This document shows, in pieces, positions 18,729 through 19,147 of a stretch of DNA of 23,863 nucleotides. The translations under genes were made by a program, and so were the position numbers. The notes beneath the pieces are model-generated. The model had not been told where the DNA came from, made no database searches, and was given only the letters and a program-made list of their open reading frames with translations. Within the stretch, counting starts at the first letter, position 1; each line of letters opens with the position of its first letter. Source of the stretch: Escherichia coli (GTDB taxonomy: Bacteria > Pseudomonadota > Gammaproteobacteria > Enterobacterales > Enterobacteriaceae); assembly GCF_003334255.1 (NCBI RefSeq), contig NZ_QOWU01000065.1; one strand, 5' to 3'.

Positions 18729-19147
18729 TGACATATCCCCTAACAGAAGACGGTGTTATTTTTGCTTATACTAAGGTTTGGTGATTTCATTTTCAATAAA
18801 AATGGAATGACGTTTTCATTTATTGTTTGAATAAGATCACAGAAATGGCATTTCCGGGCAACGGGCATGATCGTTTTTTGTTGTGTTTTTTGTTTTAATT
18901 GGTTGATTATAAATGTTTTATTTTTTAAAAGCGCATGGAAGATAAATTTCAGTTTCATGAAAAATACGCCTGAATGTCGAAATTTTTTTACCGTTTTTTG
19001 ATCTCCTTCCCATAAACGAAATGTAAATTCCATATAATTGTGAGAACGGAAATTTTGATCCTATGATAAGTCTCTGTGTTTTTGGGGCTGAAGCGATGCA
19101 TAAGCAGGCAACGACAGCCGAACGGTTGATAAAAGCAGGTGGGGTAC
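18729..19147. promoter_or_regulatory. AT-rich divergent promoter region between iolC and iolD
   Basis: About 420 bp of AT-rich DNA between divergent catabolic genes; contains an imperfect inverted repeat ttcatttt-caat-aaaatgga near 18786-18806. The ORFs listed here by the track are judged spurious. Confidence 0.5.

Follow-up and report, generated by a model that had tools for sequence, protein, structure and literature searches.

We analysed a 23,863-nt stretch of Escherichia coli DNA (contig NZ_QOWU01000065.1 of assembly GCF_003334255.1; hereafter the window) and, within it, the intergenic region from which the myo-inositol catabolic genes iolC and iolD diverge. The window is an E. coli version of the myo-inositol island GEI4417/4436 of Salmonella, as identified by its gene content, primer matches and sequence identities. 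Matches to NCBIfam models place in it iolT1, iolT2, iolB, iolA, an AraC-type regulator gene (reiD), iolE, iolG1, a GH30 protein gene (srfJ), iolI1, a major facilitator superfamily (MFS) transporter gene, iolG2, a second MFS transporter gene, a fused iolC and iolD, together with IS200 and IS91 remnants. Primers published for GEI4417/4436 of S. Typhimurium 14028 match the window with 0–2 mismatches, positions 77–23863 are 99.9% identical to seven E. coli chromosomes, and the gap region is 97.6% identical to a Salmonella island record (L083). The repressor gene iolR is not inside the window; it lies directly upstream of the window-equivalent region in both the matching E. coli record (L001) and the Salmonella record. 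We find that the iolC–iolD gap carries repeated 16-bp dyads of the form TGRAA-N6-TTYCA, and that the gap is probably a shared control region for the promoters PiolC and PiolD in which the repressor IolR recognizes these dyads.

A preliminary description of this sequence had pointed to an AT-rich control region between two divergent catabolic genes, and this was borne out on both counts. The gap extends for 413 bp between the iolC start codon (CAT on the plus strand, 18732–18734) and the iolD ATG at 19148, with a GC content of 0.34 against 0.55–0.60 in the coding flanks. In S. Typhimurium 14028, the same locus and gene order contain the promoters PiolC1 and PiolD1, all published primers map to the window, and fragments of this near-identical sequence, mapped to 18691–19192, bind IolR, CRP and H-NS; the control region is thus already characterized at the level of fragments. 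In electrophoretic mobility shift assays, IolR formed two or more shifted complexes with each of PiolC1 and PiolD1, and its binding was narrowed to about 100 bp, with pairs of high- and low-affinity sites proposed (Hellinckx et al. 2017, PMC5349611). By primer mapping, the fragments of that study correspond to 18691–18871, 18849–18980, 18966–19101 and 19094–19192. H-NS and cyclic AMP (cAMP)–CRP bind both promoters (2023 Microbiol Spectr, PMC10783015), H-NS at 50–65 nM on PiolC1, and the iolE operon has been published as not under IolR control. IolR is a tetramer, and earlier studies of the iol island had found no conserved IolR site, nor could that study derive a consensus (Hentchel et al. 2015); the words "motif" and "consensus" are both absent from the text of the 2017 IolR paper (PMC5349611). 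Where the Salmonella literature defines IolR binding by fragment, we infer its assignment to 16-bp dyads.

A GGAA-N6-TTCC palindrome has been tied to RpiR-type IolR in Caulobacter and rhizobia, and mutation of one copy derepressed iolC (Boutte et al. 2008, PMC2597717). Allowing at most one mismatch, we found 18 matches to this pattern in the window against 9.7 expected, a count that none of 100 shuffles reached. The 413-bp gap accounts for five of these (18804, 18842, 18937, 19018 and 19048); 0.25 are expected there, and none of 5000 local dinucleotide-preserving shuffles reached five. Half-site counts in the gap for spacers of 0 to 12 bp were 0, 2, 0, 0, 0, 0, 5, 4, 0, 0, 0, 0 and 1, which makes the excess specific to a spacing of 6, the count at 7 being an echo of the same sites. 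The extended form TGRAA-N6-TTYCA occurs perfectly only twice in the 23.9-kb window, both times in the gap (dyads 1 and 3 of Table 1), and a third site there, dyad 4, has one mismatch; dyads 2 and 5 are the weaker matches. The preliminary description had suspected an operator motif shared among the iol promoters: a repeated candidate does survive an AT-rich null, and its distribution over the four promoter regions is uneven, being strong in the iolC–iolD and iolA–reiD gaps, weak in the iolT1–iolT2 gap and absent from the iolE promoter.

The same dyad recurs in other lineages. A scan with IolD, taking one genome per species, gave 80 loci, about 40 of which combine divergent iolC/iolD with an IolR orthologue. 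IolR has HTH_6 and SIS domains (RpiR family) and is 76–81% identical in Erwiniaceae, 71% in an Enterobacterales metagenome-assembled genome (MAG) and about 59% in Pasteurellaceae; its HTH region hardly varies among these lineages, which makes a common specificity plausible. Across 42 iolC–iolD gaps we counted 51 sites at spacing 6 and at most 14 at any other spacing, apart from the echo at 7. The Erwiniaceae gaps are about 59% identical overall, yet contain near-invariant blocks: an iolC-proximal block, AGGAATAAAAATTCCA, in gaps that are GC-richer (44–48%) and, close to iolD, a CRP-like TTTGATCTCACTCGCA with TGAAAT after it. The upstream regions of iolA and iolR in this family carry TGAAAAATTTATTCCA and TGAAATTTTCCATCCA, and these words, like the iolC-proximal block, share the GGAA-N6-TTCC geometry. 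Pasteurellaceae gaps each hold two near-perfect TGAAA-N6-TTTCA sites (10 found against 0.8 expected), and the iolR–iolA gaps of Xenorhabdus and Providencia carry TGAAATATATATTTCA. Perfect TGRAA-N6-TTYCA sites also stand upstream of iolC in Pseudomonas loci (L026, 1920; L068, 1961; L062, 12797 and 13039), where IolR is only 36% identical, which suggests that this type of operator is widespread in Proteobacteria. In low-GC Firmicute, Fusobacteria and Brevinema loci, perfect dyads were absent, apart from a single one that chance could explain. A comparison of dyad and IolR presence over 81 loci is confounded in that iolR may lie outside the fetched locus.

To score the window independently of Salmonella, we used a matrix built from 53 unique sites of Erwiniaceae, Pasteurellaceae and Xenorhabdus/Providencia, with all Salmonella-type sequences excluded. 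Its top six matches in the whole window (19017, 7506, 18803, 18936, 7590 and 7699, in that order) all fall within the iolC–iolD or iolA–reiD gaps, and an earlier matrix trained on Erwiniaceae alone had also ranked 19015–19034 first. The iolC–iolD gap contains three sites scoring at least 7 (0.066 expected) and the iolA–reiD gap three scoring at least 6 (0.18 expected), each a count that none of 3000 local shuffles reached. The CRP-bound, IolR-independent iolE promoter and the other AT-rich gaps of the window contained no such sites.

Between islands, dyads 1 and 4 are conserved in their half-sites. We compared the window with Salmonella and with a diverged syntenic island of E. coli Z1323MEC0001 (L082), whose intergenic DNA is about 80% identical. 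Dyad 4, the best candidate, reads as a perfect TGAAATATAAATTCCA in Salmonella, including S. Typhimurium 14028, and as TGAAAAATATGTTTCA, likewise perfect, in the diverged island; in the three-way alignment its half-sites are kept and its spacer is free. For dyad 1, which reads GGAAAAAATTATTCCA in the diverged island, the position and half-sites are likewise kept and the spacer is changed, and dyad 2 is kept in Salmonella. The published fragments PiolC1, PiolC1.2 and PiolD1 together contain all five dyads, dyad 3 falling in PiolC1.2. The spacer of dyad 3 contains GATAAATT (18941–18948), which is similar to the core of TCGATAAATT, the high-affinity nucleation motif of H-NS; by this likeness, dyad 3 might be a site for H-NS and not for IolR.

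Table 1. Features of the iolC–iolD gap and its flanking genes, in window coordinates
Feature	Position	Strand	Basis and remarks
iolC, bifunctional 5-dehydro-2-deoxygluconokinase/aldolase, 645 aa	16797–18734	-	NF047869, 885 bits; same annotation in L001
iolC–iolD divergent intergenic control region	18735–19147		413 bp, GC 0.34; open reading frames, NCBIfam matches, composition
Predicted PiolC core promoter	18768–18796	-	-35 TTGAAA (18796–18791), 17-bp spacer, -10 TAGTAT (18773–18768)
Imperfect inverted repeat of the preliminary description	18781–18811		Arms 18781–18793 and 18799–18811, 85% complementarity
Dyad 1, TGGAATGACGTTTTCA, candidate IolR operator	18803–18818		Perfect TGRAA-N6-TTYCA; cross-lineage matrix score 7.5
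CRP-like site 1, TTTGAATAAGATCACA	18826–18841		1 mismatch to TGTGA-N6-TCACA; about -72.5 of predicted PiolC
Dyad 2, AGAAATGGCATTTCCG, weaker candidate operator	18841–18856		GGAA-N6-TTCC, 1 mismatch; low cross-lineage score
T-rich central tract	18862–18932		71 bp, 75% AT, 55% T; composition; poorly conserved in L082
Dyad 3, TGGAAGATAAATTTCA, candidate operator mid-gap	18936–18951		Perfect TGRAA-N6-TTYCA; matrix score 7.5
CRP-like site 2, TTTGATCTCCTTCCCA	18997–19012		2 mismatches to CRP core; about -40.5 of predicted PiolD
Dyad 4, CGAAATGTAAATTCCA, best candidate IolR operator	19017–19032		Top match of the window for both independently trained matrices (8.9; 12.3)
Predicted PiolD -10, TATAAT	19033–19038	+	Identical in window, Salmonella and L082
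Dyad 5, CGGAAATTTTGATCCT, weaker candidate operator	19047–19062		GGAA-N6-TTCC, 1 mismatch; partly kept in L082
iolD, THcHDO acylhydrolase, 646 aa from ATG	19148–21088	+	TIGR04377, 949 bits; equivalent ATG annotated as start in L001

The dyads are interleaved with two CRP-like sites, where 0.20 are expected in the gap (P=0.015). Their centres, counted from the starts that the predicted -10 boxes imply, about 18761 for iolC and about 19045 for iolD, would fall at about -72.5 and -40.5; CRP sites of class II are centred near -41.5, and those of class I near -61.5, -72.5 and so on. Site 1 lies inside PiolC1 (18691–18871) and outside PiolC1.2, which agrees with the published placement of a CRP consensus in PiolC1 and none in PiolC1.2 (PMC10783015). 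Conservation of the left half of site 2, TTTGATCT, extends from E. coli as far as Pasteurellaceae. In a consensus scan, the predicted PiolC matches 9 of 12 consensus positions, and its -35 is kept in the diverged island. For PiolD, an alternative predicted -10, TATGAT (19062–19067, with TTGTGA at 19038–19043), is not kept there. The order of CRP-like site, 3–4 bp, dyad and -10-like hexamer recurs in the diverged island, the Enterobacterales MAG, Erwiniaceae and Pasteurellaceae. Two further observations touch CRP-like site 2. The sole difference in the gap from E. coli Ecol_AZ146, at 19005 (C here, A there), falls in its spacer. An exact direct repeat, TTTTGATC, is present at 18996–19003 and, at an offset of 57 bp, at 19053–19060; the copy at 18996 forms the left half of CRP-like site 2, and the other, which overlaps dyad 5, could be a second CRP half-site.

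From this arrangement we propose how the published inputs IolR, cAMP-CRP and H-NS would meet at the leftward PiolC and the rightward PiolD. The IolR tetramer would recognize the 16-bp dyads, three of them strong (1, 3 and 4) and two weaker (2 and 5). At PiolD, dyad 4 (about -28 to -13) would fill the space between CRP-like site 2 and TATAAT, with dyad 5 just downstream of the predicted start (about +3 to +18), a placement from which bound IolR would exclude RNA polymerase. At PiolC, dyad 1 (about -42 to -57) and dyad 2 (-80 to -95, abutting CRP-like site 1) would flank CRP-like site 1 beside the -35, so that bound IolR would block CRP-dependent activation. The centres of the PiolC pair are 38 bp apart and those of the PiolD pair, dyads 4 and 5, 30 bp apart, and pairs at 30–38 bp would accommodate a single tetramer or correspond to the "A-site/B-site" pairs already proposed. 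Release of IolR is attributed to the pathway intermediate 2-deoxy-5-keto-gluconate 6-phosphate (DKGP), after which CRP would activate both promoters.

Several points weigh against this reading. Published IolR binding resolves to fragments, not to these 16-mers, and the promoter positions and all coordinates in the scheme are predictions from sequence. Dyads 2 and 3 are lost in the diverged island, and even relative to S. Typhimurium 14028 the sites differ: dyad 1 there has one more base in its spacer than here, and the CGAAA half-site of dyad 4 in the window reads TGAAA in 14028. The Erwiniaceae counts are phylogenetically non-independent. The best scores in the iolT1–iolT2 gap (4.5) and PiolR (5.3) are low despite nanomolar IolR binding in published surface plasmon resonance (SPR), which indicates that the model of IolR recognition is incomplete. 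The preliminary description had proposed MEME-type motif discovery on the island's own promoters, and this was negative: MEME-like expectation-maximization with one occurrence per sequence, palindromic and non-palindromic, at widths 12–20, on the three gaps of the window and the PiolR region of 14028, gave no log-likelihood above dinucleotide shuffles. Enrichment of exact 6–8-mers in the IolR-bound promoter regions likewise gave low-count noise only. The signal is therefore visible only with the literature pattern or with cross-species data. Finally, the dyads share the 5-6-5 geometry of a CRP site, and some of them could accordingly be weak CRP sites.

Carried further, this last point yields an alternative in which the dyads are bound by CRP or another CRP/FNR-type factor, TGAAA-N6-TTTCA being a degenerate TGTGA-N6-TCACA in a multi-site, CRP-activated divergent promoter. 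Besides the identical geometry, published SPR detected up to four CRP sites in PiolC1, CRP also binds the consensus-free PiolC1.2, which contains dyad 3, and the dyads adjoin CRP-like sites. We nevertheless consider this unlikely. The key G of TGTGA matters in CRP–DNA contacts, and the dyads carry A in its place (TGAAA versus TGTGA); the adjoining CRP-like sites are separate and better; the CRP-bound, IolR-independent iolE promoter is without dyads; and the dyad tracks IolR orthologues to the upstream region of iolR itself in Xenorhabdus and Providencia, is found also in Pseudomonas iol loci, and agrees with the IolR-linked operator of alpha-proteobacteria, in which mutation derepresses iolC. 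The gap fits what is expected of H-NS-silenced acquired DNA, being AT-rich against its flanks by our computation and H-NS-bound by published data, and the T-rich central tract is likely an H-NS-binding or curved spacer. If the gap were nothing but a horizontally acquired spacer of this kind, its TTTCAT words, inverted repeat and dyads would all be by-products of composition, as its GC of 0.34, the 71-bp tract with 55% T, H-NS binding, the chance-level inverted repeat discussed below, and the null k-mer and de novo results would allow. However, the dyad excess survives local shuffling (0/5000; 0/3000) and is specific to one spacing, other AT-rich gaps of the window lack it, and the GC-richer Erwiniaceae gaps keep their iolC-proximal block invariant. 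The spacing-specific and cross-lineage tests largely refute this explanation, which we regard as very improbable.

The remaining alternative starts from the inverted repeat to which the preliminary description had drawn attention, TTCATTTT (18786–18793), CAATA and AAAATGGA (18799–18806), part of the longer repeat in Table 1. The arms exist, cover the predicted PiolC -35 and enter the left half of dyad 1, but as a structure the repeat was rejected: it scores 7, and shuffling the gap with its dinucleotides preserved gives 7.04 +/- 1.2 (P=0.64), the null also used for words below. As an operator it fares no better, since its left arm is lost in the diverged island, where it reads TTTCG, and of its two arms only the right one is part of a dyad, dyad 1. 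On sequence, the repeat might perhaps be the everted junction of dyad 1 with a degenerate "dyad 0" (18774–18789, matrix score 2.4), which occupies the spacer of the predicted iolC promoter; TTTCA-N13-TGGAA (18785–18807) spans the right half of dyad 0 and the left half of dyad 1, and similar everted junctions are seen elsewhere at N9–N14. Alternatively, the repeat itself would be the IolR operator, with TTTCA-N13-TGGAA everted repeats bracketing the PiolC -35. A TTYCA-N13-TGRAA occurs once in the iolT1–iolT2 gap (2274–2296), around a TTGAA -35-like word, N13/N14 forms occur in Pasteurellaceae and Erwiniaceae, and such repeats could account for IolR binding at PiolT1, which the N6 dyad leaves unexplained. 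Yet in addition to the chance-level score and the lost arm, everted repeats number only one or two per set at spacings ranging from 9 to 14, and the neighbouring N6 dyads fit better; we find it quite unlikely that the repeat is the operator.

The TTTCAT words singled out in the preliminary description fit the dyads more readily. TTTCAT or its complement ATGAAA stands in the gap at 18785, 18814, 18953 and 18957, a modest enrichment (4 against 0.94 expected, P=0.02). Across the three IolR-bound divergent gaps there are 9 against 2.9 expected; the P value of 0.002 is generous because the word was chosen by eye, post hoc. The reiD–iolE gap has one against 1.0 expected. The words form the outer part of TTTCA half-sites in TGRAA-N6-TTYCA dyads. 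The recurrences that had been reported outside the gap are present, at 2291, 2329 and 9524; the last of these, reported for 9515–9530, lies at the ribosome-binding region of iolE, whose operon is published as IolR-independent. We also tried a dyad with a 2-bp spacer, TGRAA-N2-TTYCA, to which ATGAAAAATTTCAT in the iolT2 promoter of 14028 had pointed, and rejected it: it shows no enrichment (7 against 3.45), it does not persist in the diverged island, and the Erwiniaceae PiolR conserves the N6 reading better.

The candidate IolR operator resembles that of Caulobacter crescentus and rhizobia (PMC2597717), with the same RpiR and SIS family, the same 6-bp-spaced palindrome geometry and the same GGAA/TTCC core. 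There, iolC and further iol promoters contain GGAA-N6-TTCC, often in two copies each. Here, by contrast, the half-sites are mostly GAAA/TTTC extended to TGRAA/TTYCA, the spacers are A/T-rich, and the dyads interleave with CRP-like sites. In Sinorhizobium, too, the IolR operator is reportedly of the GGAA-N6-TTCC kind, according to work of Kohler and colleagues from 2011. The iol divergon of Bacillus subtilis (iolABCDEFGHIJ/iolRS), described by Yoshida et al. 1999 as cited in PMC5349611, is likewise a divergent inositol-catabolic control region under IolR repression, with relief by the same pathway intermediate and catabolite control, as here. Its IolR belongs to the DeoR family, is not homologous to the RpiR-type IolR and uses other operators, and its catabolite control runs through CcpA/cre in place of CRP. 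We put forward more tentatively a broader reading, in which TGRAA-N6-TTYCA would be a general operator of RpiR-type IolR from alpha to gamma Proteobacteria, and one or two IolR tetramers, bound to tandem dyads interspersed with two CRP sites, would at once shut both promoters and exclude CRP. If so, the long lag, bistability and hysteresis seen in Salmonella inositol use could stem from all-or-none competition between IolR and CRP.

With the control region already known, the finding of the preliminary description as written adds little; what is new is a candidate, at base resolution, for the operator that IolR uses in Enterobacteria. If the dyads are IolR sites, they provide the consensus that by their own account had eluded earlier Salmonella studies, explain iolC/iolD repression by promoter occlusion and interference with CRP, and offer defined point mutations for dissecting the bistable switch. 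IolR regulons would then be predictable in Salmonella, E. coli, Pantoea, Erwinia, Pasteurellaceae and others. This is a modest advance, and no general concept is changed.

The gap and its leaders were also searched for RNA features. An Rfam scan of the gap gave no match, and the fold of the iolD leader (19046–19160) is not unusual (z=+0.59). The iolD leader is more conserved between islands than the central gap. Words resembling GCTGAAG...AAC(C/G)ACAGC are common to the iolD leader (19083–19147), the iolA leader (7460–7473, minus strand) and the region upstream of 14028 iolR; this commonality is not significant against shuffles.

Compared with the Salmonella 14028 island, the window copy has an E. 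coli chromosome background and extra insertion sequence (IS) elements. These occupy 1–330, 4434–4998, about 8834–9255 and 15123–16310, and the Salmonella island record is without them. At the start of the window, up to about position 330, lies the 3' end of an IS110-family transposase gene, coding for the C-terminus. An IS200 with an STnc490 RNA (Rfam, 146 bits) lies directly 3' of the iolB terminator, the place where the Salmonella small RNA RssR is reported to lie. The reiD–iolE gap contains a frameshifted IS200, annotated in the matching E. coli record, and the island copy also has IS91 remnants.

Among the other promoter regions, the iolA–reiD gap has candidate dyads at 7506–7521, 7534–7549, 7590–7605 and 7699–7714, with matrix scores of 9.3, 4.4, 6.9 and 6.4. 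Of these, the sites at 7506 and 7534 persist as a pair in the diverged island, and the sequence of this pair, AGGATTAAAAATTTCA...TATGAAAT, is closely like the Erwiniaceae iolC-proximal block AGGAATAAAAATTCCA...TATGAAAT; the site at 7699–7714 lies inside a 74-bp PreiD fragment that binds IolR according to published work. In the iolT1–iolT2 gap, the block at 2270–2340 is strongly conserved between the diverged islands. It includes TGTTATGGGTGTCACA (2306–2321), which is among the closest matches to the CRP core in the window, with one mismatch like four other sites. For the PiolT1 SPR fragment, covering 2196–2356, no CRP binding was reported (PMC10783015), and IolR binds it at published sub-nanomolar affinity. 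The fragment contains degenerate dyads only (TGAAACTTGTGTTTTG at 2292), and the conserved block must contain what IolR sees at iolT1–iolT2. Upstream of the MFS transporter gene at 13754–14920 (minus strand) stands AGGAATTAAAATCCCC (14940–14955), a GGAA-N6-TCCC dyad with one mismatch, and by this match that transporter might also be under IolR control.

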